Program-made: the position numbers and the translations under genes
NCBI GenBank assembly: GCA_022792415.1
Contig: JAAWAY010000182.1
Location: forward strand, 1 to 11,406
Origin: Eggerthellaceae bacterium
Lineage (GTDB): Bacteria; Actinomycetota; Coriobacteriia; Coriobacteriales; Eggerthellaceae
Direction: 5' to 3'
DNA: 11,406 nucleotides
The notes under the pieces: model-generated
The model's database searches: none
Told to the model about the DNA's origin: nothing
What the model saw: the letters and a program-made list of their open reading frames with translations, nothing else
Part shown: one piece after another, positions 1 to 11,406 of the stretch
Position numbering within the stretch: the first letter of the stretch is position 1
Layout of the letters: each line of letters starts with the position of its first letter

Positions 1-102
1 GAGTGGTACCGGGACGGCAGGCTCAAGGCGTTCGAGGAGGACGGCAGGGTGGTGTACGATACGATCATGGGCCGCAGGAGGCGGCTCGGATACGCGGCCT
101 AG
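1..102 (+). CDS. 3' end of an unidentified upstream gene (truncated by window edge)
   Basis: Frame 1 is open from the window edge to TAG at 100-102. It reads EWYRDGRLKAFEEDGRVVYDTIMGRRRRLGYAA, with G/C-rich third codon positions like the neighbouring genes. It is too short to appear in the ORF track and no family can be assigned. Confidence 0.3.
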   Translation, partial: EWYRDGRLKAFEEDGRVVYDTIMGRRRRLGYAA

Positions 103-277
103 GCATGTCCAAGAATCTGCCGCAGTCCCGTTTGACGACGCCCGGGGACCCGATTCGGCCTCCTGGGGCAGAATCTCCGGAAAGTGGCTGAAGCTGACCA
201 GGTGTTTTGCCGATGAAGGCGCCCACGTGGCCCCGACCAGCGTCGTCAAACCCCCGATTCCTGGCATCTCGCGCCGC

Positions 278-405
278 GGGACGTGCGCGCCGGCCCCCGC
301 GGACCCCGCGGGACGTGCGCGCCGGCCCCCGCGGACCCCGCGGGACGTGCGCGCCGCCCCTCGCGGACGCCGCAGGACGTGCGCGCCGGCCTCCGCGGAC
401 GACGC
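278..405. repeat. Four tandem copies of a 32-bp GC-rich repeat (GGGACGTGCGCGCCGGCCCCCGCGGACCCCGC), each junction forming a CCCGCGG-ACC-CCGCGGG hairpin
   Basis: Copies lie at 278-309 and 310-341 (identical), 342-373 (3 mismatches) and 374-405 (4 mismatches). A partial copy precedes at about 268-277. The 32-nt period is not a multiple of 3, so the overlapping track ORFs (207..482, 227.., 283..714) shift frame at each unit. The array is therefore non-coding. Confidence 0.9.
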
Positions 406-539
406 CGCCCGGCGCCTCGCGGAGCCGCTCGCCGCGCTCGCGGGTTTTCTGGCGCCTGCGCCCCGGCCCCGCGCGACAATAGCCCTCGCACGAGGGCGCC
501 GTCCGCGAGGGGCGGGGCCGCAACCGAAACGGAGGAACC

Positions 540-1742
540 ATGCAAGACACCGCGACCAGCATCGACGAGCTCCTTTCCGACGGCATCAAGAGCACGCCCC
601 CGTCGTTCGTCCGCTCCATCCTGGCCGCCGCCTCCGATCCGGCCGTCACCTCGTTCGCCGGCGGGCTGCCCAACCCCATCTCGTTCCCGCAGGCCGAGCT
701 GCTGGACTCGATGACGCGCGTGGTGGCCGAGCGCGGCGCCGACGCGTTCCAGTACTCCATGACCGCCGGCATCCCCGAGCTGCGCGGGTGGATCGCCGAT
801 CGCTACAACCGCCGCTTCGGCACCGACTACGTCGCCGACGACGTGCTCATCACCACCGGCTCGCAGCAGATCCTCGACCTGCTGGGCAAGGTGCTGCTGG
901 ACAAGGGCGACGGCGTCATCGTGGAGAAGCCCACCTACCTGGCCGCCATCCAGGCCTTCGCGCTCAACCAGCCGACGTTCCGCGAGGTGGAGCTGACCGA
1001 GGACGGCCTGGACATCGACGAGCTCAACGCCGCGCTCGACGCCGGCGCCAAGATGATCTACCTCATCCCCAACTTCCAGAACCCCACCGGGCTCACCTAC
1101 ACCGCCGAGGGGCGCCGCCAGGTGCGCGAGGCGCTGGCCGGCCGCAACATCGTGGTGGTGGAGGACGACCCGTACGGCGAGCTGCGCTTCGAGGGCGAGT
1201 CGCTGCCCTACATCGGCGGGGTCAACCACCCGCACGGCGTCGTGATGGGGTCGTTCTCCAAGACGGTGACGCCGGGCTTCCGCATGGGCTACCTGCTGAC
1301 GAAGGACCACGCGCTGCTCAAGGCCGTCAACACCGCCAAGGAGGCCGCCGACCTGCACACCAACGTGTTCGCCCAGTACGCCGTCTACGACTACCTGACC
1401 CACCACGACCTGGACGAGCACCTGGTGAAGATCCGCGACCTGTACCGCGCCCAGGCCGCGGCCATGGTGGAGGCGATGGAGGAGTTCTTCCCCGAGGGCG
1501 TCGCGTTCACCAAGCCCGAGGGCGGCATGTTCCTGTGGGTGACGCTGCCCGAGGGCGTGTCCACCATGGCTCTGTTCGACAAGGCGCTCGCCCGCAACGT
1601 GGCCTTCGTGCCGGGCGACCCGTTCTACGCCGAGCCCGGCGAGCGCAACACCATGCGCCTGAACTTCACCAACGCCGACGAGGACACCATCCGCGACGGC
1701 ATCCGCCGCCTGGGCGAGGTGATCGCCGAGGAGTTGGCCTAG
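540..1742 (+). CDS. PLP-dependent aminotransferase, class I/II (2-aminoadipate / aromatic aminotransferase-like, MocR-type catalytic domain)
   Basis: 400-aa ORF with GGAGGA (531-536) just before ATG 540. The N-terminal FAGGLPNPISFP motif and the SFSK PLP-lysine motif (SFSKTVTPGFRMGY) are present, followed by a C-terminal MRLNF-type small domain. Codon bias is typical of a high-GC genome. Confidence 0.9.
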   Translation: MQDTATSIDELLSDGIKSTPPSFVRSILAAASDPAVTSFAGGLPNPISFPQAELLDSMTRVVAERGADAFQYSMTAGIPELRGWIADRYNRRFGTDYVADDVLITTGSQQILDLLGKVLLDKGDGVIVEKPTYLAAIQAFALNQPTFREVELTEDGLDIDELNAALDAGAKMIYLIPNFQNPTGLTYTAEGRRQVREALAGRNIVVVEDDPYGELRFEGESLPYIGGVNHPHGVVMGSFSKTVTPGFRMGYLLTKDHALLKAVNTAKEAADLHTNVFAQYAVYDYLTHHDLDEHLVKIRDLYRAQAAAMVEAMEEFFPEGVAFTKPEGGMFLWVTLPEGVSTMALFDKALARNVAFVPGDPFYAEPGERNTMRLNFTNADEDTIRDGIRRLGEVIAEELA

Positions 1743-1820
1743 GCGCCGGGCGGCGAGCCGCCTTCTGATCCTCGCGGTGCCGGGCATCCCTCCGCCAGAC
1801 GCCGACCCCATCGCGAACAA

Positions 1821-1864
1821 CGCGGGCCCGGCCGGGACATTCCGGCCGGGCCCGCGAGATTTTA
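1821..1864 (+). terminator. Rho-independent terminator of the aminotransferase gene
   Basis: A perfect 15-bp stem pairs CGCGGGCCCGGCCGG (1821-1835) with CCGGCCGGGCCCGCG (1842-1856). The loop is 6 nt (GACATT) and AGATTTTA follows the stem. Confidence 0.8.
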
Positions 1865-1903
1865 CGCTCCCTTCACACGCGCCTCACGCTCCCCTCCCAC
1901 CGC
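1862..1903 (+). promoter_or_regulatory. Pho-box-like direct repeats upstream of the Na/Pi transporter gene
   Basis: Hexamers TTTACG (1861), TTCACA (1872), CTCACG (1883) and CCCACC (1895) are phased at 11-12 nt. They resemble the TT(A/T/C)ACA units, repeated on an 11-bp phase, bound by PhoP/PhoB-type regulators. They sit 70-110 nt upstream of the transporter start, and a PhoB/OmpR-type regulator is encoded just downstream. Confidence 0.3.
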
Positions 1904-1971
1904 GCCCCTATCCTCTTCGACGACAAAGGGGCGGCCGGGCCGGGCGCCCGCGACGAGCCGAGGAGGCGCAC

Positions 1972-3006
1972 GTGGACGAGATGATGCGGACGGGGCTGGG
2001 ACTGCTGGGCGGCCTGGCGCTGTTCCTGTACGGCATGAACCTGATGAGCGGCAGCCTGCAGGAGGCCGCGGGCGAGCGGATGCGATCCGTGCTGGCGGCG
2101 GTGGGCCGCAACCCCGTGGTGGGCGTGGTCGCCGGCGCCCTGGCCACGGCGGTGCTGCAGAGCTCGAGCGCCACCACGGTGATGGTCATCGGGTTCGTGT
2201 CGGCCGGGCTCATGCGCCTGCCCCAGGCCGTCCCCCTCATCATGGGCGCCAACATCGGCACCACCATCACGGCGCAGATCCTGGCCTTCAAGCTGTCAGA
2301 CTACGTGCTGGCCATCGTGTTCGCCGGGTTCGTCGCCATGTCGCTGGCGCGGCGGGAGAAGGCCAAGCTGGGCGGGCGGGCGCTGTTCGGGTTCGGCCTG
2401 CTGTTCCTGGGCATCGGCACCATGGGCGACGCCCTGAAGCCGCTCGCGTCCGACCCGCTGTTCACCGACATGATCACCCAGGTGACGGGCGTGCCCGTGC
2501 TGGGCGTGGCCGTGGGCACGCTCATGACGCTCGTCGTGCAGAGCTCGAGCGCCACCATCGCGGTGCTTCAGAACCTGGCCTCGCAGCCCGGCCCCGACGG
2601 CGCGAGCCTCATCGGCCTGGAGGGTGCCATCCCCTTCCTGCTGGGCGACAACCTGGGCACCACCATCACGGCGCTGCTGGCGGCAGCGGGCCAGAGCCGC
2701 GATGCCAAGCGCGTGGCGCTGTCCCACTGCCTGTTCAACCTGTCGGGCTGTTTGCTGTTCGTGTGGATCATCGGGCCGTTCGCGGCGCTGGTGGCCGCCG
2801 TGCCCCCGGCCGGCCCCGAGCTGGAGGTCATCGCGCGGCAGATCGCCAACGCCCACACGCTGTTCAACGTGGCGATGACGGCGCTGTGGCTGCCCTGCGT
2901 GCCGCTCATGGTGCGGATGGTGATGGCGCTGCTGCCCGACCGGCCGCCGCGCCCGCGTGACCCGTTGGCCGCGCGCGACCCGCTGCCCGGGGGCATGGCG
3001 GCGTAG
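1972..3006 (+). CDS. Na+/phosphate cotransporter family protein (NptA/YjbB-like, transporter domain only)
   Basis: The polytopic membrane protein has a duplicated LQSSSATT / VQSSSATI signature, the QSSS repeats of Na/Pi-cotransporter type II. The track ORF begins at 1777, but that N-terminus is Pro/Arg-rich junk. GTG 1972 lies 5 nt after AGGAGG (1961-1966); ATG 1981 (MMRTGLGLLGG) is the alternative start. No PhoU-like C-terminal domain is present; the protein ends in a Pro-rich tail. Confidence 0.85.
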   Translation: MDEMMRTGLGLLGGLALFLYGMNLMSGSLQEAAGERMRSVLAAVGRNPVVGVVAGALATAVLQSSSATTVMVIGFVSAGLMRLPQAVPLIMGANIGTTITAQILAFKLSDYVLAIVFAGFVAMSLARREKAKLGGRALFGFGLLFLGIGTMGDALKPLASDPLFTDMITQVTGVPVLGVAVGTLMTLVVQSSSATIAVLQNLASQPGPDGASLIGLEGAIPFLLGDNLGTTITALLAAAGQSRDAKRVALSHCLFNLSGCLLFVWIIGPFAALVAAVPPAGPELEVIARQIANAHTLFNVAMTALWLPCVPLMVRMVMALLPDRPPRPRDPLAARDPLPGGMAA

Positions 3007-3024
3007 CACCTGGGAAACGGCCTG

Positions 3025-3063
3025 CGGGCGGGGGCATCCGCCCGTCCGGGGGCGGGCTACAAT
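3025..3063 (+). promoter_or_regulatory. Two mutually exclusive GC hairpins plus a TACAAT -10-like hexamer upstream of the response regulator
   Basis: CGGGCGG (3025-3031) pairs with CCGCCCG (3038-3044). The same CCGCCC (3038-3043) can instead pair with GGGCGG (3050-3055). TACAAT lies at 3058-3063, 30 nt before ATG 3093. No U-tract follows. Confidence 0.3.
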
Positions 3064-3092
3064 GAGCGCCGAGCACCGGCGGAAGGAGCATC

Positions 3093-3824
3093 ATGGCGGG
3101 CAGGCCCCTCATCTACTACGTGGAGGACGACGAGCACATCCGCGACCTGGCGGCATACGCGCTGGGTCAGGCGGGGATGGACGTGCGCGGGCTGCCTGAC
3201 GGGTCGGGGCTGGCGGCCCTGTGCCGGGCCGAGCCGCCCGACGCCGTGCTGCTCGACATCATGCTGCCCGGCGACGACGGGCTCACGCTGCTGCGCCGCC
3301 TGCGCGCGGACGAGGCGTGCGCCGACGTGCCCGTCATGATGCTCACGGCCAAGGGATCCGAGTACGATGCCGTGCGGGGGCTGGACGCCGGTGCCGACGA
3401 CTACCTGGCAAAGCCCTTCGGCATGATGGAGCTCATCGCGCGCGTGAACGCCCTGCTGCGCCGCGCCGCGCGCCCGGCCGCGACGGGATCACGCGGGGGC
3501 GGCGAGGAAGGCGAGGTGCTCGAGTCGGGCGGGGTGCGCCTGTCGGCCGCCTCCCACCGCGTGGTGGCCGGCGGGACGGCGGTCGACCTGACGGTGAAGG
3601 AGTTCGACCTGCTGCGCGCCCTCATGGCCCGGGAGGGGCGCGTGCTCACGCGCGCCCAGCTGCTCGAGGAGGTGTGGGGCGTGCTCTACCCCGGCGAGAC
3701 GCGCACGGTGGACGCCCACGTCAAGACGCTGCGCCAGAAGCTCGCCGCAGCCTGCCCCGGGGCCGAGCGGACCGTGGAGACGGTGCGCGGCGTGGGGTAC
3801 CGCTTCCAGGGCGGCGAAAGCTGA
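3093..3824 (+). CDS. OmpR/PhoB-family two-component response regulator
   Basis: The receiver domain has the acidic pocket YVEDDE, the phospho-acceptor context LLDIMLPGDDG, and LTAKG...KPF. The C-terminal winged-helix domain has LTVKEFDLL, VDAHVKTLRQKL and TVRGVGYRF. GGAAGGAG lies upstream of the ATG. Confidence 0.92.
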   Translation: MAGRPLIYYVEDDEHIRDLAAYALGQAGMDVRGLPDGSGLAALCRAEPPDAVLLDIMLPGDDGLTLLRRLRADEACADVPVMMLTAKGSEYDAVRGLDAGADDYLAKPFGMMELIARVNALLRRAARPAATGSRGGGEEGEVLESGGVRLSAASHRVVAGGTAVDLTVKEFDLLRALMAREGRVLTRAQLLEEVWGVLYPGETRTVDAHVKTLRQKLAAACPGAERTVETVRGVGYRFQGGES

Positions 3825-5311
3825 TGGGCCGCGCGCCCAGCCTCTCGCGGCGCCTGTTCCGCGCCGTGCTCGCGTTCGCCCTGGCGGGCATCGTGACGTT
3901 CTCGCTGGTCATCGCCGGCATCTGCTACGCGTCCCTCGAGCGAGACGCCGCCGCCCGCCTGGCCGGCGAGGCCCAGCGCGCCGCCCGGCTGCTCGACGGG
4001 CTGCCCGTCGGCGAGCAGGAGGCCATGCTGGCCGGTCAGCTGGACGATGCCGTGCGGATCACGCTGGTGGCGCCCGACGGCGCCGTGCTGTTCGACAGCG
4101 CCACGGCGTCGCAGGACCTGGGCGGGCTGCCCAGCCACGCCGACCGCCCCGAGGTGCGCGCCGCGCTCGAGAGCGGCGAGGGCGCGGCCGTGCGCCGCTC
4201 CGACACCCAAGGCGGCGACACCGTCTACGCCGCCGCGGCGCTGGCCGACGGGTCGGTGGTGCGCCTGGCCGAGACGCGCGAGTCGCTCGTCGCCTTCTTC
4301 CTGGACGGGCTGGTGGCGCCCCTGGCGGCGGCGCTCGTCATCGCCGCCGTGCTGGTGCTGGTGCTGTCGCGCCTGCTCACGCGCAGCCTCATGCGGCCCC
4401 TCGACCAGCTGGACGCGGCGCGGCCCCTGGAGGGCGAGGCCTACGCCGAGATGGTGCCGCTGCTCGCGCGCATCGACTCGCAGCAGCGCACGCTGCGCGC
4501 CCAGAACGAGGAGCTGGCGCGCGCCGAGAGCCTGCGCCGCGACTTCTCGGCCAACGTGTCCCACGAGATGAAGACGCCGCTGCAGGTGATAGCCGGCTAC
4601 GCCGAGCTCATGGCCAACGGCATGGTGCCGCCCGGCGACGTGGCGCGGTTCTCCGGGGTGATCTACGAGGAGTCCCAGGCCATGCGCGCGCTCATCGACG
4701 ACGTGCTCACGCTCTCGCGCCTGGACGAGCAGGGCGCCGGCACCGCGCAGGCCCCCGTCGACCTGGCCGGGGCCGCGGCGCGCGCGGCGCGCAGGCTGGC
4801 CAAGCCGGCGGCCGACGCGGGCGTCTCGGTGGAGGTGGACGCGGAGGGCCCGGCCATGGTGCGCGGCAGCGAGGCGCTGATCGAGCAGATGGCCTACAAC
4901 CTGGTTGACAACGCCGTGCGCTACAACCACCCGGGCGGCGAGGTGCGCGTGACGGTGCGGCTGGAGGACGCCGCGGGCGCGGAGGCGGGCGCGGGCGCGC
5001 GAGATGGCGCAGGCGCCGCGGGCGCGGGTGGTGAGGACGGCGAGGCGCGTGCCGCCAGCGGCCCGGTGGCCGTGCTCATGGTGGACGACACGGGGCCCGG
5101 CATCCCCCCGCAGGCGCGCGAGAAGGTGTTCGAGCGGTTCTTCCGCCTGGACAAGAGCCGCTCGAAGGAGACGGGCGGCACGGGGCTGGGGCTGGCCATC
5201 GTCAAGCACGTCGCCCTCACGCACGGCGGCAGCGTGTCGGCCGGCGACGCCCCCGGGGGCGGCACGCGCCTCACCGTGCGGCTGCCGGCGATCGCGCCGG
5301 GGGCGGAGTAG
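3824..5311 (+). CDS. Sensor histidine kinase (PhoR/EnvZ-like), translationally coupled to the regulator
   Basis: ATG 3824 overlaps the regulator stop (TGATG). Two TM segments (LAFALAGIVTFSLVIAGICYA and VAPLAAALVIAAVLVLVLS) flank a roughly 130-aa external domain. The H-box is FSANVSHEMKTPL, the N-box LVDNAVRYN, and the G-boxes DDTGPGI and GGTGLGLAIV. The track ORF starting at 3221 is an in-frame upstream extension overlapping the regulator gene. Confidence 0.9.
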   Translation: MGRAPSLSRRLFRAVLAFALAGIVTFSLVIAGICYASLERDAAARLAGEAQRAARLLDGLPVGEQEAMLAGQLDDAVRITLVAPDGAVLFDSATASQDLGGLPSHADRPEVRAALESGEGAAVRRSDTQGGDTVYAAAALADGSVVRLAETRESLVAFFLDGLVAPLAAALVIAAVLVLVLSRLLTRSLMRPLDQLDAARPLEGEAYAEMVPLLARIDSQQRTLRAQNEELARAESLRRDFSANVSHEMKTPLQVIAGYAELMANGMVPPGDVARFSGVIYEESQAMRALIDDVLTLSRLDEQGAGTAQAPVDLAGAAARAARRLAKPAADAGVSVEVDAEGPAMVRGSEALIEQMAYNLVDNAVRYNHPGGEVRVTVRLEDAAGAEAGAGARDGAGAAGAGGEDGEARAASGPVAVLMVDDTGPGIPPQAREKVFERFFRLDKSRSKETGGTGLGLAIVKHVALTHGGSVSAGDAPGGGTRLTVRLPAIAPGAE

Positions 5312-5391
5312 CGGAACGGGCGCAGCGGGGCGGGGCGGGGCGCGGGACGGGGCGTGGGACGAGCCCACCGCGCGGCGCGGGGCAGGCCTCG

Positions 5392-5925
5392 CTAGAGCGC
5401 CAGCGCGCAGGCCGCCGCGATCGCGCCCGCCGCCAAGCCCAGCGCCGCGCCCGCGACGACGTCACGCGGGTAGTGGACGCCGCCCGCCACGCGCAGCGCC
5501 GCCAGGACGACGGCGGCCGCGCCCAAGCCGACCGAGACGGCGGGGGACGCGCACCACCAGCCCGCGGCGATGGCGAAGGCCGAGAACGCGTGGCGGCTCG
5601 GCAGCGAGCGGCCCGCCCCGTCGCGGGCGATGAGCGGGGACACGCCGTCACGCTCGTAGGGGCGCGGCGCGTCGATGCGGGCGCGCACGAGGCTCACCAG
5701 GGCGAACGCGACGCCGAGGATGCCGACCAGCGGCACGAGGCGCACCGGGTCGCGCGCCGCCTCCAGGGCGAGCAGCACCGCGAAGGCCGCATAGAACACC
5801 CAGACGATGGCGCGGTTGGCCGCCCCGAGCGCCCGGGCGAGCGTCGGGCGGGCGCCGCACCACGCGGCCCAGCGGGCGTAGCGTCGCGCGTAGGGACGCG
5901 CCTCGGGTGCGCCTGCGTCGCACAT
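5392..5925 (-). CDS. PAP2-family membrane phosphatase (phosphatidic acid / undecaprenyl-diphosphate phosphatase type)
   Basis: All three PAP2 motifs are present: RARIDAPRP (KX6RP-like), PSRH (PSGH-like) and RVAGGVHYPRD (SRX5HX3D-like). The protein has several hydrophobic helices. The start is taken as ATG 5925 (MCDAGAPE), which overlaps the stop of the upstream sirtuin gene by 1 nt (ATGA). The track ORF extension to 6204 is Arg/Gly junk overlapping that gene. Confidence 0.8.
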   Translation of the reverse strand: MCDAGAPEARPYARRYARWAAWCGARPTLARALGAANRAIVWVFYAAFAVLLALEAARDPVRLVPLVGILGVAFALVSLVRARIDAPRPYERDGVSPLIARDGAGRSLPSRHAFSAFAIAAGWWCASPAVSVGLGAAAVVLAALRVAGGVHYPRDVVAGAALGLAAGAIAAACALAL

Positions 5926-6842
5926 CAGGCCCCCTCCCCCGTCACCGCGTCCAGCACCTGGCCCACCGGGGCGGCCACGCACAGGTCGGCGCGGCGGTCG
6001 GCGTCGGTGGGGCTCAGGTTGACGATGGCCAGGTGGTCGCCCTGGAAGTAGCGCAGGAGCCCGGCCGCCGGGTACACCACCAGCGACGTGCCCGCCACCA
6101 CCAGCAGGCGCGCCTGGGCGACGGCCATCGCGGCCGCCTCCAGCACGGCCCCGTCGAGCGGCTCCTCGTAGAGCACGACGTCGGGCTTGACGACGCCCCC
6201 GCACGAGCAGCGCGGCACGCCGTCGGGCGACGCCGCGCGCAGGGCCAGCATCTCGTCCAGGTCGTAGGCCCGCCCGCAGCCCACGCAGCGGTTGCGGTGC
6301 ACGCTGCCGTGCAGCTCCATCACGTTCCGGCTGCCCGCCGCCTGGTGCAGCCCGTCGATGTTCTGCGTGACCACCGCCGCGCAGGTGCCCTGCCGCTCCA
6401 GCTCAGCCAGGGCCCGATGGGCCGCGTTGGGCCGTGCGGCGGGGTGCACCATGTGGTCGAAGTAGAAGTCGAAGAACGCGCGCGGGTGCGCGTCGAAGAA
6501 CGAGCGCGACACCATCTCCTCGGGCGAGCGCTCGCGTCCCTGGGAGAACACACCGCCCGCGCTGCGAAAGTCGGGGATGCCGCTCTCGGTGGACACGCCC
6601 GCCCCGCCGAAGAACACCAGGCCGCCCGGCGGGCACTCCCCCACCCAGCGGCGCAGCGTCGCGACGCCGCGCTCCGCCTCCTCGCCGCGCGATCCGGCCG
6701 CATCCGCTGGCGACACCGTGGGCGGCGCGGCGCCCGTGTCCGCAGGCGTCGGCCCAGCCGCCTCCAAGGCCTCCCGGCCCGTCGCGTTCGCGTTTGCCGA
6801 CGTCGACGTCGCCGCGAGCGCGCCCCGGTCTCGATCGCCCAT
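5925..6842 (-). CDS. cobB: NAD-dependent protein deacylase, Sir2/CobB family
   Basis: Motifs present are GGAGVSTESGIPDFRS, TQNIDGLH, ELHGS and the zinc ribbon CVGC...CSCGG followed by KPDVVLYEE. The start is taken as ATG 6842 (MGDRDRG), preceded by GAGGTGG. The track ORF continues to 7139 only because the purine-rich tract lacks stops. About 55 aa of low-complexity N-terminus precede the catalytic core. Confidence 0.88.
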   Translation of the reverse strand: MGDRDRGALAATSTSANANATGREALEAAGPTPADTGAAPPTVSPADAAGSRGEEAERGVATLRRWVGECPPGGLVFFGGAGVSTESGIPDFRSAGGVFSQGRERSPEEMVSRSFFDAHPRAFFDFYFDHMVHPAARPNAAHRALAELERQGTCAAVVTQNIDGLHQAAGSRNVMELHGSVHRNRCVGCGRAYDLDEMLALRAASPDGVPRCSCGGVVKPDVVLYEEPLDGAVLEAAAMAVAQARLLVVAGTSLVVYPAAGLLRYFQGDHLAIVNLSPTDADRRADLCVAAPVGQVLDAVTGEGA

Positions 6843-7060
6843 GTCCCACCACCTCGCATCCGCACCGAATCCTTCGAGGTACAGGATAGCCCACCGGCGC
6901 GGCCGCCACCATACAACCCGCGGGACGCGACCTTCAGCCGTTCCCGGCATGAAGCCCACCAGACGGCCCTCCGCCCTTCGACGGCCCTCTACCACATAGC
7001 GCCAGGCGGCCCGCCTCCTTCCAGCATGAGCCCCCTCGGCCGCGCAGGCCATCAGACGCG

Positions 7061-7185
7061 ACCTTCCGACCTCCCAACCTCCCCCCCTTCCTCTTCCCCC
7101 CTTCCTACCTTCCCCCCTTCCGACCCTCCTTCCGACCATCTCCCATCCCCCTTTCCTTCCCGCCTTTCCACCTCCCTGCCTCCCG
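7061..7185 (+). repeat. About 125-nt polypyrimidine (C/T) low-complexity tract with internal short repeats
   Basis: Only about 15 purines occur in about 125 nt on the + strand. CCTTCCGACC occurs three times (7062, 7117, 7128). TTCCCCCCTTCC-type units recur every 13-15 nt. The tract lies 220-340 nt upstream of the sirtuin start, where it is purine-rich on the sense strand. Confidence 0.85.
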
Positions 7186-7237
7186 GCAACCTGCCAGTGA
7201 CCCGCCAGCCGCCTTCAGCGACTTTTCACCCCGCCTC

Positions 7238-7400
7238 CATCCAGAATCGACGGTTTGTCGCCATGCGGCCAGCATCCTAAGACGCACAGGAAGCCCAGCG
7301 CCACACAAAACGGATCGATGTCTTTCGCTGACCTGGGGTTTCATCAAGAGGCCGTGCTACAACAAAGCAGGGCGAGCGAACAAACCGTCAATTCTGGATG
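7238..7400. repeat. 20-bp inverted-repeat pair (1 mismatch) flanking a 123-bp lower-GC segment
   Basis: CATCCAGAATCGACGGTTTG lies at 7238-7257. Its reverse complement, CAAACCGTCaATTCTGGATG, lies at 7381-7400, matching 19 of 20 positions. Confidence 0.85.
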
Positions 7401-7434
7401 AAATGCGAGCAAGAACGGGATGCACGCCGTCAGG

Positions 7435-7581
7435 CACACGCGCGATGCCGGGAAGGCTAGACGCACGCGGCGCCGAAAAGATCAGTCACGTGCGATTCAG
7501 GGAAGACCGGCCACACGCGCGATATCGAAAGAATCGACCACCCGCGCGGAGTCGGGAATGCGGTCGCGCGAGACCAGGAAG
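7435..7581. repeat. Iteron-like array: six phased copies of a 16-nt motif GCGCGAnnnCGGGAAG
   Basis: Copies start at 7440, 7465, 7490, 7517, 7544 and 7566, spaced 25, 25, 27, 27 and 22 nt. The sequences are GCGCGATGCCGGGAAG, ACGCGGCGCCGAAAAG, GTGCGATTCAGGGAAG, GCGCGATATCGAAAGA, GCGCGGAGTCGGGAAT and GCGCGAGACCAGGAAG, matching the first copy at 10-13 of 16 positions. An exact 12-mer, CACACGCGCGAT, occurs at both 7435 and 7512. The period is variable and not a multiple of 3, so the array is non-coding. Confidence 0.65.
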
Positions 7582-7785
7582 TCCGAACGACGCGCCAGGA
7601 CGGCCGCCTCGAGATGCTGACCTCTGAGGCAGGGTCGTACGTCGGCCCGCCTCGCGCGGGACGCCGGATCTTCGCGCCACCGCGGGTCGGGACGTGGGAC
7701 GCGAGGAGGGGCGAACGGTAAATCGCGCCATTGCATCCAGCTATATGAAGTTCAATAGAAAAGGGCCCAACACGGGGCGAGCGGC

Positions 7786-8985
7786 CTACTCACGGGGGTG
7801 AGCGGCGACAGGCTCCCGAGGCTCGTAGGGGCGCTGCTCGCGCCAAACGGCGAGGATGGTACCGGCCAGCTTACGGGCGACCGCCGAGACGGCCACCCAG
7901 TGGTGCTTGCCGCGATCACGCAGAGCCTGGTAGTAGTCCCCGTAGTAGGGGTCAGCCCTCCTTGCGGCGTCGGCCGCGATCATGAGCGCCCGGCGCAGGT
8001 AGGGGCTGCCGCGCTTGGACATGTGGGCGCGCCTCCCCTCGAACTGCCCGGACTGGAAGCGCGAGGCGTCCATGCCAGCGTAGGCGATTACCTTGGAGGC
8101 GTCCCCGAAGGAGGAGGCGTCGCCCAACTCCGAGGCGATGGCGGCGGCGGTCACGACGCCCAGGCCCGGGACGGTGAGGAGCACGGCGGCGGAGGAAGCG
8201 GCAAGCTGCTCGGCGCAGAGCACGTCGAGTTCCGCTATGGCGCGGTCGAAGCCGTCCAGGAGGCCGAGCAGGACGCGGGCCTCGCAGGACAGGGCCTCGG
8301 AGGGGCAGCCGACCGAGGCGCGGGCGGCCCCGACGAGGGCGCAGGCCCGCTCGTGCCCGTGTCGGCCCCGGGAGGCGGTAGAGAGCAGCGCCGCCAGGGC
8401 CTCCGGGTCGGCGTCGGCCAAAAGGCACGGCGAGGGGTAGGCCGCCAGCACCGCGCGGGAGGAGGCCGACCAGAGGCCGCCCATGACGCGGGCGAACTCC
8501 GGGAAGACACGGTCAATGACGGCGGTGAGGCGGTTCTTGGCCTGGGTTCGCTGCGCCACCACCTGCGAGCGGCAGCGGGTGAGGTGGCGCAGACCCTCCG
8601 CGTCAGGCGGGAGGGCGGGGACGGGCTCCGGTCGGTAGAAGCGCCCAAACTGCGCGATGGCCACGGCGTCCACCGCGTCGGTCTTGCACTTGCGCACCGT
8701 CTCGGCGCGACGGAAGGCCGAGACGCGGGCAGGGTTCACGACAGCCACGCGCCACCCCGAGGCGGCGAGGTGTCGGGCGAGGGCCACGTGGTAGTGGCCG
8801 GTGGCCTCCAGCACGACGAGCGAGCCGGACGGCGCGGCCCCGCGGGATTGGAGCCAGGACGCGAGGGACGCGAACCCGGCGGCGTCGTTGGAGAAGGAGA
8901 AGGGAGGCCCGACGACCCCTCCCCCCTCGTCGACGGCGGCGGCAACGTGGAAGGCCTTGGCGACGTCGATGCCGACATAGAGCAT
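7786..8985 (-). CDS. IS110-family transposase / DEDD recombinase
   Basis: 399 aa. The N-terminal RuvC-like DEDD pattern is MLYVGIDVAK (D), VLEATGHYH (E) and CKTDAVDAVAIA (D, D). The C-terminal Tnp_20-type domain has TVPGLGVVTAAAIASELGD (HhH) and SGQFEGRRAHMSKRGSPYLRRAL (conserved Ser region). GGAGGGAGG lies 7 nt upstream of the ATG. Confidence 0.93.
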   Translation of the reverse strand: MLYVGIDVAKAFHVAAAVDEGGGVVGPPFSFSNDAAGFASLASWLQSRGAAPSGSLVVLEATGHYHVALARHLAASGWRVAVVNPARVSAFRRAETVRKCKTDAVDAVAIAQFGRFYRPEPVPALPPDAEGLRHLTRCRSQVVAQRTQAKNRLTAVIDRVFPEFARVMGGLWSASSRAVLAAYPSPCLLADADPEALAALLSTASRGRHGHERACALVGAARASVGCPSEALSCEARVLLGLLDGFDRAIAELDVLCAEQLAASSAAVLLTVPGLGVVTAAAIASELGDASSFGDASKVIAYAGMDASRFQSGQFEGRRAHMSKRGSPYLRRALMIAADAARRADPYYGDYYQALRDRGKHHWVAVSAVARKLAGTILAVWREQRPYEPREPVAAHPRE

Positions 8986-8995
8986 GGAGAAACCT

Positions 8996-9096
8996 CCCTC
9001 CTGCCTCCCCGCGCGCCCCGCCCCACAAGATCTTCGGTCATGCGGCCCCTGGGGCGCACCAGCCGAATACGCGGCACAGGCGGGGAGGCGGGAGGG
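8996..9096 (-). promoter_or_regulatory. Long stem-loop filling the rep-recombinase intergenic region; its 3' arm covers the recombinase Shine-Dalgarno
   Basis: A 17-nt inverted repeat with one mismatch pairs 8996-9012 (CCCTCCTGCCTCCCCGC) with 9080-9096 (GCGGGGAGGCGGGAGGG). The enclosed loop is 67 nt and contains a smaller GC hairpin around 9042-9057. On the minus-strand RNA the 3' arm GCGGGGAGGCAGGAGGG runs into the GGAGGGAGG ribosome-binding site. Confidence 0.6.
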
Positions 9097-9112
9097 CTGA
9101 CTATGTAGATGA

Positions 9113-9730
9113 CTAGACGAGGCCGGCGGCTGCCAGCTGCTCGGCCTCCCTGACCTGACGTGTGCGGGCGGCGCAGCGCCTGGAGCGTATGTACTGCGAT
9201 ATGCCGTAGGCCGACTTGCTGGACAGTATCAGCAGCCAGTCGGAGTTGTTGCGGGCCGCGTAGTTCCAGAGCGCGGCGAACTCGTTGACGTCGTTGTCCT
9301 CCACGAACGCCGTCATGTCCGCGAGCATGGACAGCTCCTCGGACTTGGAGAGCGCCCGGGAGAAATCGCACGTGATGCCGGAGAGGCGCACGACCGAGTC
9401 GACCGGGTAGGGGTGCTTGGAGGGGTCGTCGAGGTGGCAGAGGTAGCGGCACATGGTGCGGAAGCTGCGCACCGGCTCGAAGAACTCCACGCCCGTGAAC
9501 GCGAAGTCCTCGCGCACCTGGGAGAGGGCCTTCACGCTCTCGTAGCGGGCCACTACGTGGACGTGGGGCTTCACGGGCTGCCCGTCGGCGTCCACGTCGG
9601 CGTCGTGCAGGACGTAGGCGATCGGAACGTGCAGGTCGCGCATCATGCCCTCCCAGCCCTCGGGGAGGGACTCGGGGTAGCACACGAACGTCCAGCAGGG
9701 CTTGCGCTTGGAGGGGTCGTACTTCGCCAT
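9113..9730 (-). CDS. Rolling-circle replication initiator, RepB/Rep_2 (pMV158) family HUH endonuclease
   Basis: The N-terminus closely parallels pMV158 RepB: CWTFVCYPESLPEGW (compare YFTFLLYPESIPSDW), LHVPIAYVLHDAD, the HUH motif KPHVHVV, and the tyrosine motif MCRYLCHLD (compare MYLYLTH). AAGGAG lies 7 nt before the ATG. Confidence 0.88.
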   Translation of the reverse strand: MAKYDPSKRKPCWTFVCYPESLPEGWEGMMRDLHVPIAYVLHDADVDADGQPVKPHVHVVARYESVKALSQVREDFAFTGVEFFEPVRSFRTMCRYLCHLDDPSKHPYPVDSVVRLSGITCDFSRALSKSEELSMLADMTAFVEDNDVNEFAALWNYAARNNSDWLLILSSKSAYGISQYIRSRRCAARTRQVREAEQLAAAGLV

Positions 9731-9766
9731 GGGGTGCTCCTTACGTGATTAGTGAATACTGATGCA

Positions 9767-9797
9767 ATTGGGGGGCAGACGTAGCAGGCCCCCCAAT
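9767..9797 (-). promoter_or_regulatory. Candidate double-strand origin (nick-site hairpin) for the Rep protein
   Basis: A perfect 10-bp stem pairs ATTGGGGGGC with GCCCCCCAAT. On the gene-sense (minus) strand the 11-nt loop reads CTGCTACGTCT. It shares the CTACG core with the pMV158-family nick sequence TACTACG/AC, which also sits in a hairpin loop upstream of repB. The hairpin ends 36 nt upstream of the rep ATG. A second small hairpin, GCCCC-TGCCG-GGGGC, lies at 9799-9813. Confidence 0.5.
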
Positions 9798-9843
9798 CGC
9801 CCCTGCCGGGGGCAACGGCCCGGCTCCGCGCGGAAAGACGGTG

Positions 9844-10533
9844 CTATTCCGCGCTGCGCTGCGCCGGGAGCGGACGGTCGCCGCCCGGGGGCAGGGGTGC
9901 CCCCTGCCCCCGCCCCCGGGCGTCGCCCGGCACCTGCCGGAAGAGCGCACAACTGTCGTAGAGGCGACGGTAGCAGCGGCGCGGAAAGAGCCAGGAGACG
10001 CCGATGCGCTGGCCGAGGCCGTAATAGCAGCTAACCGCACAGAAGAGCCTCCCGGCAAAGGGGAGCGAGAGCAAGCGAGCGACGAGGCCGAAGCTGGCGA
10101 GGCGGCGGTGCTTCACCTCGACCTCGATGAGCGCCCGTATCTGGCGGTCTATCATGCGGTCGTGCTGGGCTATGAGCACGACGCGGTAGCCAAGCTTGCG
10201 GTGCTGGGAGAAGAACTCGATCCACGAGAGCCGGTCGCGCTGCGACCAGTCGCGGCTGTTGAACACCAGCTGCGCCTCGTCGATGACGAGCAGGATATCA
10301 TCCTCGCGCACCCTGCGCCCGCCCCAGCGGGCCCGGGCAATCTCATAGAGCCGGGGCGGCGAGAGCGCGTCGTTGGGGACGTACCTGAAGCGCTCGGCGT
10401 AGCCGCGCGTCTCCGGGTTGACGTCGAAGTTGGCGACGACGGGGGCGCGGCGCCACACGAGCGCGTCGCGTATCTCCTTGGCCGCGTGCATGGACTTGCC
10501 CGAGCCGGGCGTGCCGGAGTAGAGGTAGATCAC
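9844..10533 (-). CDS. Zot / inovirus pI-like assembly P-loop ATPase
   Basis: Walker A lies at the extreme N-terminus (MIYLYSGTPGSGKS) and Walker B is DDILLVIDEAQ, followed by FSQHRKLGYRVVLIAQ. This is the characteristic Zot-family layout. A hydrophobic segment (LVARLLSLPFAGRLFCAVSCYYGL) follows the ATPase domain. The start is GTG 10533, 6 nt after GGGAGGAGG. Confidence 0.85.
   Translation of the reverse strand: MIYLYSGTPGSGKSMHAAKEIRDALVWRRAPVVANFDVNPETRGYAERFRYVPNDALSPPRLYEIARARWGGRRVREDDILLVIDEAQLVFNSRDWSQRDRLSWIEFFSQHRKLGYRVVLIAQHDRMIDRQIRALIEVEVKHRRLASFGLVARLLSLPFAGRLFCAVSCYYGLGQRIGVSWLFPRRCYRRLYDSCALFRQVPGDARGRGQGAPLPPGGDRPLPAQRSAE
9887..9911. other. Perfect 11-bp GC hairpin inside the 3' end of the Zot-like gene
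   Basis: GGGGGCAGGGG (9887-9897) pairs with CCCCTGCCCCC (9901-9911) around a 3-nt loop. It lies in the low-complexity tail codons (RGRGQGAPLPPGG) of the ATPase ORF, about 45 nt before its stop. Confidence 0.6.
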
Positions 10534-10546
10534 AAGCGCCTCCTCC

Positions 10547-10801
10547 CTACTTGACAGAGTTTATGAAGTCCATGACCACAAGGGCGACGTTGACCGCGAT
10601 GATCGCGCCGACCCAGACGGTCAGGATGGTTATGAGGTCGCCCACCGGGATAAGCCAGTTGAGCGCGCCCAGGGCGTCGGCCACGGGCTGCGGGACGGCG
10701 AGGGGGAGCGATGCCACGTCGATGGTGGGCAGGAGGCCCAGGAGCAGCAGCACCAGCTGCAGCCCAGCGCCCGTGAGGAAGTCGATGATCTGCGTTATCA
10801 C
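10547..10801 (-). CDS. Small hydrophobic membrane protein, inovirus pVI-like position (minor coat / assembly)
   Basis: The 84-aa product starts at GTG 10801, which overlaps the upstream stop (GTGA). It reads VITQIIDFLTGAGLQLVLLLLGLLP...LITILTVWVGAIIAVNVALVVMDFINSVK, with 2-3 predicted TM helices. Its stop overlaps the ribosome-binding site of the Zot-like gene. The track ORF start at 10999 gives an Arg-rich N-terminus overlapping the upstream gene and is judged spurious. Function is assigned from position only. Confidence 0.5.
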   Translation of the reverse strand: MITQIIDFLTGAGLQLVLLLLGLLPTIDVASLPLAVPQPVADALGALNWLIPVGDLITILTVWVGAIIAVNVALVVMDFINSVK

Positions 10802-11406
10802 GTCGCACCACCCGCCCCGGTGCGGAAGATGAAGGACTTGGACGAGAGCAGGAGGCCGCACGCGAACAGCAGCCGCACCGCCCAGCCGACGACGTCCGCG
10901 AACCCCTGGTAGCCGGAGAGGTCGAGGACAAGCGACTCGCCCATCACCTCGAAGGAGACGACCGGCGCGGCGGCGTCGGCCTCGAGGAGCCCGAGGCACT
11001 GCTTGACGATGGCGGGGACGCAGAAGGGGAACACGCCCGAGAGCGCGCCGAAAACATCGGAGGTGAGGGCAGAGAGCCGCGAGAAGTCCAGGTCGCCCAG
11101 GATGGCGTCGGCCACGTCCTCGGCCAGGCCGAGGCGCAGGAGGGACTGTATCTCGCCCAACTCGTCGTAGAGGCGGTCGGGTATGGAGACATCGACGGAG
11201 GGGAGGTCGAGGGCTCCCATACGGTTATAGACCATCGCCAGAAGTTGGGCAACTGAATGCACCTCACGGGAGGAACCAGGCAGTGTTCCGCTGTAGTAGC
11301 CCGCAGACCACAAGCCTGCAAGAAGCTGCGATACCGTGTGGGAGGTGCGGGAACTGCTGGGCAGGGCGCCCTCGAAGGTGAAGCGCCCGTCGGTGACGAG
11401 CATGGC
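10798..11406 (-). CDS. Hypothetical phage structural protein with C-terminal membrane anchor (pIII-like position); possibly 5'-truncated by window edge
   Basis: The reading frame is open to the window end, with an ATG at 11403. A C-terminal hydrophobic segment (VVGWAVRLLFACGLLLSS) is followed by a short tail. The gene lies immediately upstream of, and overlaps, the pVI-like ORF. No recognisable catalytic motif is present. Confidence 0.45.
   Translation of the reverse strand, partial: AMLVTDGRFTFEGALPSSSRTSHTVSQLLAGLWSAGYYSGTLPGSSREVHSVAQLLAMVYNRMGALDLPSVDVSIPDRLYDELGEIQSLLRLGLAEDVADAILGDLDFSRLSALTSDVFGALSGVFPFCVPAIVKQCLGLLEADAAAPVVSFEVMGESLVLDLSGYQGFADVVGWAVRLLFACGLLLSSKSFIFRTGAGGAT

Follow-up and report, generated by a model that had tools for sequence, protein, structure and literature searches.

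A filamentous prophage of an Eggerthellaceae bacterium probably integrates by an RNA-guided IS110-family recombinase with a bridge RNA split between the two phage ends

We analyzed an 11,406-bp DNA window, the whole contig of a metagenome-assembled "Eggerthellaceae bacterium" genome, in which a gene for an IS110-family recombinase directly follows the replication gene rep of a filamentous (inovirus) prophage. Positions 1–7734 are chromosomal DNA, and the sequence from 7737 to the contig end, read on the minus strand, is the right 3.7 kb of the prophage. Our reading, to which we give a probability of roughly 0.78, is that the window holds the right part of an inovirus that integrates by means of this recombinase, guided by a bridge RNA in two pieces: a donor-binding loop (DBL) encoded beside the recombinase gene and a target-binding loop (TBL) encoded at the far end of the phage. 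The phage would descend from, or have captured, an insertion sequence (IS) of the IS110 group, and its genome (small open reading frames [ORFs], a pIII-like gene, zot, and rep; ~5.5 kb) would sit between TBL and DBL, the TBL part of this arrangement being drawn from four complete relatives. All inference is comparative, and all sequences come from metagenome assemblies. The features on which the argument turns are as follows.

9113–9730, minus strand: phage replication initiator Rep (Rep_OBD + RepB_C), from Pfam and from homologs 57–80% identical directly upstream of the recombinase
8986–9112, minus strand: rep–recombinase spacer of 127 nt, a stem-loop with the putative DBL inside
9016–9085 (outer stem to 8996–9096), minus strand: putative DBL of a bridge RNA, from covariance model R1
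9059–9063, minus strand: left donor guide GCUGG, identical to the final 5 nt of the right end (7741–7737)
9030–9034, minus strand: right donor guide AAGAU, with the reverse complement ATCTT equal to core AT plus the left-end start CTT
7786–8985, minus strand: IS110-family DEDD/Ser recombinase of 399 aa, from Pfam, NCBIfam, and catalytic residues
7737–7785, minus strand: right end of element and prophage, 49 nt, from the end of conservation among relatives
7765–7782, minus strand: terminator-like hairpin in the right end, from a terminator scan
7750–7755, minus strand: −35-like TTGAAC in the right end
7737–7747, minus strand: left-donor sequence CATATAGCTGG, a motif unique in the window
7735–7736, minus strand: core dinucleotide AT, the presumed crossover at the phage–host junction (attR), predicted by the right donor guide and observed
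7728–7734, minus strand: right half of the host target, GCAATGG, host DNA outside the element, where all relatives diverge

The recombinase matches the Pfam families DEDD_Tnp_IS110 (PF01548, E = 9e-38) and Transposase_20 (PF02371, E = 2e-22), scores 266 bits against a cut-off of 140 with the NCBIfam model NF033542 ("IS110 family RNA-guided transposase"), and is similar in sequence to two bridge recombinases of solved structure, ISCro4 (E = 1e-27) and IS621 (E = 7e-24). Both IS110 domains are present, an N-terminal DEDD RuvC-like domain and a C-terminal Tnp domain with the catalytic serine, and residues D7, E60, D103, and D106 as well as the serine of the SKxG motif are invariant in an alignment of 29 homologs. 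Since the ORF is intact and dN/dS is 0.24–0.29 relative to the closest phage-borne copies, the recombinase is under purifying selection.

The gene is co-oriented with rep and lies 127 nt downstream of it, rep itself coming after the Zot/pI gene. A single-protein scan of GTDB genomes found nothing, and an alignment-based rescan succeeded. The two nearest recombinase homologs (77% and 73% identity) are likewise found directly behind zot–rep. A search with Rep gave 13 further proteins; when their contigs were checked, together with those of the 396-aa and 404-aa recombinase groups, the order zot–rep–recombinase was seen in every recombinase-bearing member found, all of them linked to rep. Identities to the window proteins fall together, 80/79/72/57% for Rep versus 73/77/52/50% for the recombinase, and in a neighbor-joining tree the phage-borne recombinases are monophyletic, with compact IS elements as their sister group. 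As judged from this comparison, the association of rep and recombinase is long-standing and selected, and no recent IS insertion. Inovirus relatives without the recombinase also exist: L181, found by a Rep look-up (Rep 55% identical), and L165–L167, found by a Zot scan (Zot ~60–62%, Rep ~28–31%), which parallel the Thermus pair phiOH3/phiOH16.

In a second inovirus lineage, L164 (IMG/VR UViG_2524023091_000001, 5070–8086), Zot is 69% identical, Rep is of a different type (G2P), and the IS110 recombinase, also a different one (39% identity), follows a 230-nt spacer that by eye seems to contain both loops. This suggests that recombinases have been acquired independently or as modules.

We then defined the right end by aligning the DNA after the recombinase stop codon from the window and from L001, L002, L182, L183, L186, L187, L189, L193, L175, and L233. 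Conservation stops at ...(C/T)ATATAG(C/A)TGG, 49 nt past the stop codon (7737 in the window). Beyond this point, each copy enters different host DNA, at more than 10 distinct host sites; the genes met there include those for ModA-like, Fic, radical SAM, ferredoxin, XerC-like, Na/Pi cotransporter, and PDDEXK_2 proteins. Only attR, with the core AT, is on the contig; in relatives a matching core is found at both ends, CT/CT in L175, L183, and L186 and TT/TT in L233. Since the right end coincides with the prophage–host boundary at more than 10 sites, the recombinase, the terminal gene of the phage block, is most likely the phage's own integrase. Reverse complemented, the right end AACTTCATATAG resembles the compact-IS left end TATATTGAAGTT, a similarity that we judged to be coincidental. 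A search for the empty site via the host SIR2 gene found the closest other protein at 78% identity, on short contigs, and no prophage-free conspecific genome in the database.

The rules by which guides and ends can be compared were read from compact IS110 relatives in Coriobacteriia (e.g., L003, L084, and L092–L094), which have recombinases of 45–54% identity, are multicopy, and in many cases lie on contigs of 1.6–2 kb. In one Atopobiaceae chromosome there are three compact copies, whose left and right ends measure ~260 and ~120 nt, respectively. Their left end consists, in order, of a C(G/C/A/T)TATATT box (−10), a hairpin, the TBL, and the DBL, followed by the recombinase gene; their right end reads ...ATAGC(T/A)GG(T)-CT. 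The stems of both loops show compensatory base changes. In IS621, the 5' strand of a loop equals the top strand to the left of the core and the 3' strand is complementary to the core plus the right side (PMC11208160). Correspondingly, the 5' strand of the compact-IS DBL is GCUGG or GCAGG where the right end is GCTGG or GCAGG; the 3' strand ACGAG/AUGAG/AGGAG/ACAAG is the reverse complement of core CT plus left-end CGT/CAT/CCT/TGT; and the 3' strand of the TBL is likewise complementary to CT and the host bases that directly follow on the right. Read from loops and ends in this way, the published IS621 guide rules apply to the compact Coriobacteriia elements. In L003, a sister of the phage clade, the TBL directly adjoins the DBL and the guides match perfectly over 7–8 nt; these side-by-side loops fit an unsplit bridge RNA as the ancestral state.

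Among the compact elements, L092–L095 and L098 insert at GCTCCTC-CT, which on the other strand reads as a ribosome-binding site beside a start codon, so their TBLs are tuned to Shine–Dalgarno regions. Three others (L102, L104, and L105; 42–43% identity) have a TBL-like loop directly before the recombinase, ~300 nt upstream, with no DBL between, and L104 has a weak DBL-model match ~3.3 kb upstream (652–719, E = 0.08). These may be further noncanonical bridge RNA layouts.

The 127-nt spacer of the window (8986–9112) folds as one long stem-loop with arms at 8996–9021 and 9071–9096. A covariance model (R1) was built from 13 compact-IS DBLs, no phage sequence being included, and it matches 9016–9085 over its full length with 33.2 bits and a rough E of 7.6e-6. 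Every phage-borne copy has exactly one R1 match, always in the rep–recombinase spacer, and none was found in relatives without the recombinase. In an alignment of eight phage copies, fitted to R1 and so leaning toward the structure, helices 1, 2, and 4 of the four are 86–100% paired, and six pairs are changed on both sides.

The guides inside this loop fit the ends of the element. The left donor guide covaries with the right end, being GCUGG, GCAGG, or GAUGG (in L175, GAUGG in the RNA and GATGG in the right end), and of the 19 elements with a known right end, 17 have a left donor guide identical to the right-end 5-mer; an alignment shift accounts for one of the two exceptions (L147). For all 16 elements with a known left end, the core plus the first three left-end bases, reverse complemented, give the right donor guide at 5/5 positions, across five different triplets. 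In the window, AAGAU occupies the aligned position of ACGAG, AUGAG, AGGAG, ACAAG, or AAGAG in relatives and predicts an AT core; AT is what is observed right after the right end (7736–7735). Likewise, the guide GAGAA of L001 predicts a TT core, TT follows the L001 right end, and the prediction was later confirmed at the attL of L233 from the same lineage (...CCTCG-TT-CTTATATT). By homology and covariation, then, the rep–recombinase spacer carries a bridge-RNA DBL.

These results bear out the observations and part of the interpretation of a first-pass annotation made from the letters of the window. It had described an IS110-family DEDD recombinase co-oriented with and directly behind rep, which proved to be full length; had proposed that it is the phage integrase, as the boundary at more than 10 host sites also indicates; had suggested bridge-RNA guidance, with which the DBL-model match and the fit of the guides to right end and core agree; and had seen in the upstream 127 nt one long stem-loop, which appears to be part of the guide. 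Collecting other copies, as it advised, gave the right end at 7737 and the core AT, with CT or TT in relatives. The compact IS occurring independently of phage genes that it named as contrary evidence was not found within the phage clade, every member being linked to rep; compact relatives do exist, as the sister group.

The other half of the guide was sought at the left ends of complete related prophages, which are available for four lineages (L175, L183/L184, L186, and L233/L234). Their ends enclose ~6.1–6.8 kb with a full inovirus gene set, and all four left ends begin with CTTATATT(A/G)AGTC(C/G)CG, followed by a hairpin and then by a TBL-like loop, which is thus at the extreme left end of the phage, ~5.5 kb from the DBL. 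The junctions are clearest in L175, where the prophage splits a PDDEXK_2 (Rpn/YhgA-like) gene whose C-terminal codons resume in frame on the far side (5042–5185 and 12013–12657). Since the gene is split and CT is present at both junctions (attL = CCCTG-CT-CTTATATTGAG; attR = GATGGT-CT-CCAAAG), attB can be reconstructed. A second CGTATTCGG motif near the L175 left end was rejected as the left junction because the split gene fixes attL at CCCTG-CT-CTTATATT. The junctions of L183/L184, L186, and L233/L234 are equivalent to these. In L175, the right end of the phage gives the truncated PDDEXK_2 gene a new short C terminus and a stop codon.

The compact-IS TBL model matches the left end of L183 and L186 (E of about 0.005–0.008). 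In all four lineages, the right target guide fits the insertion site.

L175: right target guide UUGGAG, reverse complement CTCCAA; core plus four host bases CTCCAA (6/6)
L183: right target guide AGCUAG, reverse complement CTAGCT; core plus four host bases CTAGCT (6/6)
L186: right target guide CCGUAG, reverse complement CTACGG; core plus four host bases CTACGG (6/6)
L233: right target guide AAAAAA, reverse complement TTTTTT; core plus four host bases TTTTTT (6/6)

In this position-specific test, cognate right target guides match at 6/6 positions versus 1–3/6 for noncognate pairs, and five independent insertions of the L186 lineage are all at CT-ACGG. There are thus four different guides with four matching targets in four lineages, and three cores (CT, TT, and AT). 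In the complementarity check suggested by the first-pass annotation, the donor guides of the window fit the ends to be joined (right end and core), and the match to the insertion site is seen in the four relatives, the window phage's own left end lying beyond the contig. At 5315–5340 of L175, part of the 5' DBL half is repeated (GCCGTATTCGGCGGCTGGG), after the TBL and just before the first phage ORF. This partial copy was not seen in L183, L186, or L233 and may be the scar of the event that separated the loops.

How such a phage might integrate can be outlined from these parts. On circularization of the phage genome into its replicative form, the right end would meet the left end and form attP, which for the window phage is predicted to read ...TTCATATAGCTGG-AT-CTTATATT..., with a predicted empty site LT-AT-GCAATGGCGCG (LT, left target). 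In several lineages, the joint would create a σ70-like promoter from the −35 of the right end, a 17-nt spacer, and the TATATT of the left end, and this promoter would drive the TBL RNA. A −35-like hexamer 17 nt from TATATT across the joint is found in the window (TTGAAC, 7755–7750, with the left end taken from relatives), L233, L175, and the compact IS elements, an arrangement that resembles the junction promoter of IS621. The DBL would probably be part of the rep–recombinase transcript. With the two RNAs bound as separate molecules, recombinase subunits would then pair attP with the chromosomal site and exchange strands at the core dinucleotide, and integration would part −35 from −10. IS621 recombines in vitro with TBL and DBL supplied as separate RNAs, its synaptic complex using loops of two RNA molecules (PMC11208158), which makes a split guide mechanistically plausible. 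We lean, with less assurance than for the reading as a whole, toward a naturally two-piece bridge RNA serving as phage integrase, in which the TBL RNA is encoded at the left end, and in some lineages expressed only from a promoter formed on circularization, the DBL RNA is encoded with the recombinase gene, and specificity evolves by few changes of guide nucleotides.

Several observations count against a split bridge RNA. Neither the TBL model nor the left-end motif was found anywhere in the window, so that the left end must lie past 11406 and half of the system is supplied by relatives; even there, the compact-IS TBL model is not significant on L233 or L175, where the TBL was placed from its position and its matching guide. 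When the TBL guides were compared with the flanks by unrestricted longest match, the result was weak (right guide, p = 0.04–0.19; left guide, not significant); this comparison was replaced by the position-specific test, and the left target guide matches are short, 5–6 nt with mismatches. On the donor side, the left guide match spans only 5 nt and stops short of the core, and the junction core of L002 is CT where its guide predicts TT. The folding energy of the spacer is by itself unexceptional at the given GC content (z = −1.7), so support for the structure comes from homology and covariation rather than from folding energy, and the E-values of the models are rough because calibration was shortened. 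The −35 is poor in the 396-aa recombinase lineage. Finally, exact-pattern scans of IMG/VR and JGI metagenomes for the predicted attP joint ATATAGCTGGNNCTTATATT gave 39 matches, all in unrelated AT-rich DNA without rep, zot, or recombinase nearby, and no circular form.

Other explanations of the same locus have to account for the boundary and guide data. A compact IS110 element might have landed beside rep, lost the 5' half of its bridge RNA, and become inert, with integration proceeding by another route such as the host XerCD. The related inoviruses without recombinase (L181 and L165–L167) are what one would expect of such a passenger, as is the fact that only half a bridge RNA adjoins the gene. 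However, the right end of the recombinase unit is the prophage boundary at every site; the right donor guide of the DBL fits the phage left end ~5.5 kb away and nothing adjacent to the DBL; a TBL with matching guides is found at that left end; in L175, CT is the core at both junctions and a gene is cleanly split; and the ORF is intact and under purifying selection. A decaying passenger is therefore quite unlikely. The stem-loop could instead serve the phage in a role other than recombination, as a rep terminator, a packaging signal, or a replication-origin hairpin; inoviruses use hairpins for origins and packaging, and a GC-rich intergenic hairpin in a filamentous phage invites that comparison. 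This is highly improbable, given that the stem-loop is homologous to the DBL of phage-free compact IS elements and absent from relatives without the recombinase, and that the two strands left unpaired in it change in step with the ends and core of the element. A terminator/promoter scan called neither for the DBL, which has no T-tail, and an Rfam scan of the whole window gave one chance miRNA match and no bridge RNA.

The first-pass annotation had favored a third layout, an IS1111-like one with the guide RNA in the 3' flank of the recombinase gene (7290–7785). That flank indeed has no credible ORF, has a lower GC content (0.59–0.64 versus 0.70–0.78 in adjoining genes), and contains repeats and a strongly folding palindrome; its length had been put at ~490 nt, and the actual noncoding stretch between SIR2 (start at 6842) and the prophage is ~890 nt, which is unusually long and low in GC. 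Against a guide there, homology among relatives stops at 7737, 49 nt after the stop codon, and host DNA differs beyond, so the 3' flank is host DNA; the flank (6843–7736) shows no similarity to ~240 fetched related loci or to plasmids. The covariance-model search that had been recommended for both sides of the gene matched 9016–9085 upstream and nothing in 7290–7785 downstream, and the wider flank (7140–7785) had no match to Rfam, the DBL model, or the TBL model. Moreover, the compact relatives have a long left end (~260 nt) with the bridge RNA and a short right end, which is the layout of the IS110 group. We give an IS1111-like guide almost no credence and retain a split bridge RNA as the preferred reading.

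The palindrome in this host flank (7225–7412) is imperfect, with core arms at 7238–7258 and 7380–7400 (21 nt, 95% complementary) extending to ~30 nt; it folds much better than shuffled sequence (z = −5.2), lies ~335 nt from the insertion point, and is present in no related locus. Upstream of SIR2, CCTTCC-rich tandem repeats (7061–7169; periods 8, 16, and 30) with an extreme C/G strand skew give the SIR2 ORF a spurious N-terminal extension.

Compared with IS621 and ISCro4 of the IS110 group, the predicted system shares the DEDD RuvC-like and Ser Tnp domains, guide loops that follow the same rules, an RNA upstream of the gene, and a dinucleotide core. It differs in that protein similarity is remote (E = 1e-24 to 1e-28), the element measures ~6.1–6.8 kb versus ~1.3 kb, the loops are ~5.5 kb apart (in relatives) versus together in one ~180-nt RNA, the core in the window is AT versus CT, and the left donor guide match is only 5 nt, short of the core. 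The layout of the IS110 group is thus kept, with the DBL upstream, a short 49-nt right end, and in relatives the TBL at the extreme left end, except that the loops are not contiguous and that the compact size of the group (~1.3–1.6 kb, recombinase and RNA only) gives way to the ~6.1–6.8 kb enclosed in complete relatives. With the compact Coriobacteriia IS110 elements it shares homologous DBL, TBL, and end sequences; those elements are ~1.6 kb, multicopy, and cargo-free with contiguous loops, whereas the phage clade is a sister group with cargo. IS1111/seekRNA elements belong to the same recombinase superfamily and are RNA guided, but they encode the guide downstream of the gene, within a long right end that has subterminal inverted repeats of 7–17 bp (PMC11208160); here, the right end is 49 nt without a guide.

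Among phages, the Neisseria Nf/MDA and Thermus phiOH16/Zuza inoviruses have an IS110-family transposase at the provirus end that is thought to mediate integration, and have sister phages without the gene (PMC11437467, PMC7058167). The layout is the same, with the transposase gene at one provirus end, while hosts and Rep types differ, in a comparison made by description. No bridge RNA is reported for these phages in the literature that could be searched. Expanded IS110 loci have boundaries that enclose kilobases of cargo, some of it phage derived (bioRxiv 10.64898/2026.08.14.744561); that cargo is resistance- or plasmid-like and the boundaries are half matched, unlike the whole inovirus with loops separated by it that we propose here, neither of which is mentioned there. 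A full-text literature search of incomplete coverage turned up no paper in which bridge or seek RNAs are connected to filamentous phages or such a split guide is described. IS110 transposases at the edges of filamentous prophages and cargo-bearing IS110 loci are therefore already described, and what appears to be new is a bridge-RNA system with a whole inovirus as cargo and its two loops encoded at opposite ends.

If correct, this would provide a mechanism for the choice of integration site by IS110-bearing filamentous phages, dependence on the transposase being only assumed for the Neisseria and Thermus phages. Separate TBL and DBL RNAs, an arrangement known so far only from in vitro experiments, would then also occur in nature, and the cargo of a bridge recombinase could be an entire replicating virus. 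For studies or engineering of specificity, the clade provides related recombinases whose guide–target pairs can be read and some of whose cores are not CT. For annotation, an "IS110 transposase" at a prophage edge may be an integrase and not an insertion.

The remaining genes of the window agree with a chromosomal left part and an inovirus right part. The host portion (1–7734) encodes a Na/Pi cotransporter, a histidine kinase, a PAP2 gene, and a SIR2 deacylase, and the phage portion has the inovirus hallmarks Zot, Rep, and small co-oriented structural ORFs, in synteny with the complete prophages of ~6.1–6.8 kb.

9844–10533, minus strand: Zot/pI assembly ATPase, from Pfam Zot
within 9844–11406, minus strand: inovirus structural ORFs upstream of Zot, truncated by the contig end, from tblastn synteny with the complete prophages L175, L183, L186, and L233
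5925–6842: host SIR2 deacylase, with the start at 6842 following the NCBI annotation

The Zot region is a 65–75% match to annotated Zot genes in GenBank phage records (bajarodino viruses); a DNA search of GenBank phages gave only distant Zot matches, and a Rep search of IMG/VR gave none. The final ~75 codons of the zot ORF fall beyond the Pfam Zot match. Two GC-rich inverted repeats (9764–9800 and 9855–9949), with arms of 13 nt in one and 43 nt in the other, lie in or just after the 3' end of zot, before rep, and are candidate phage origin or packaging hairpins.

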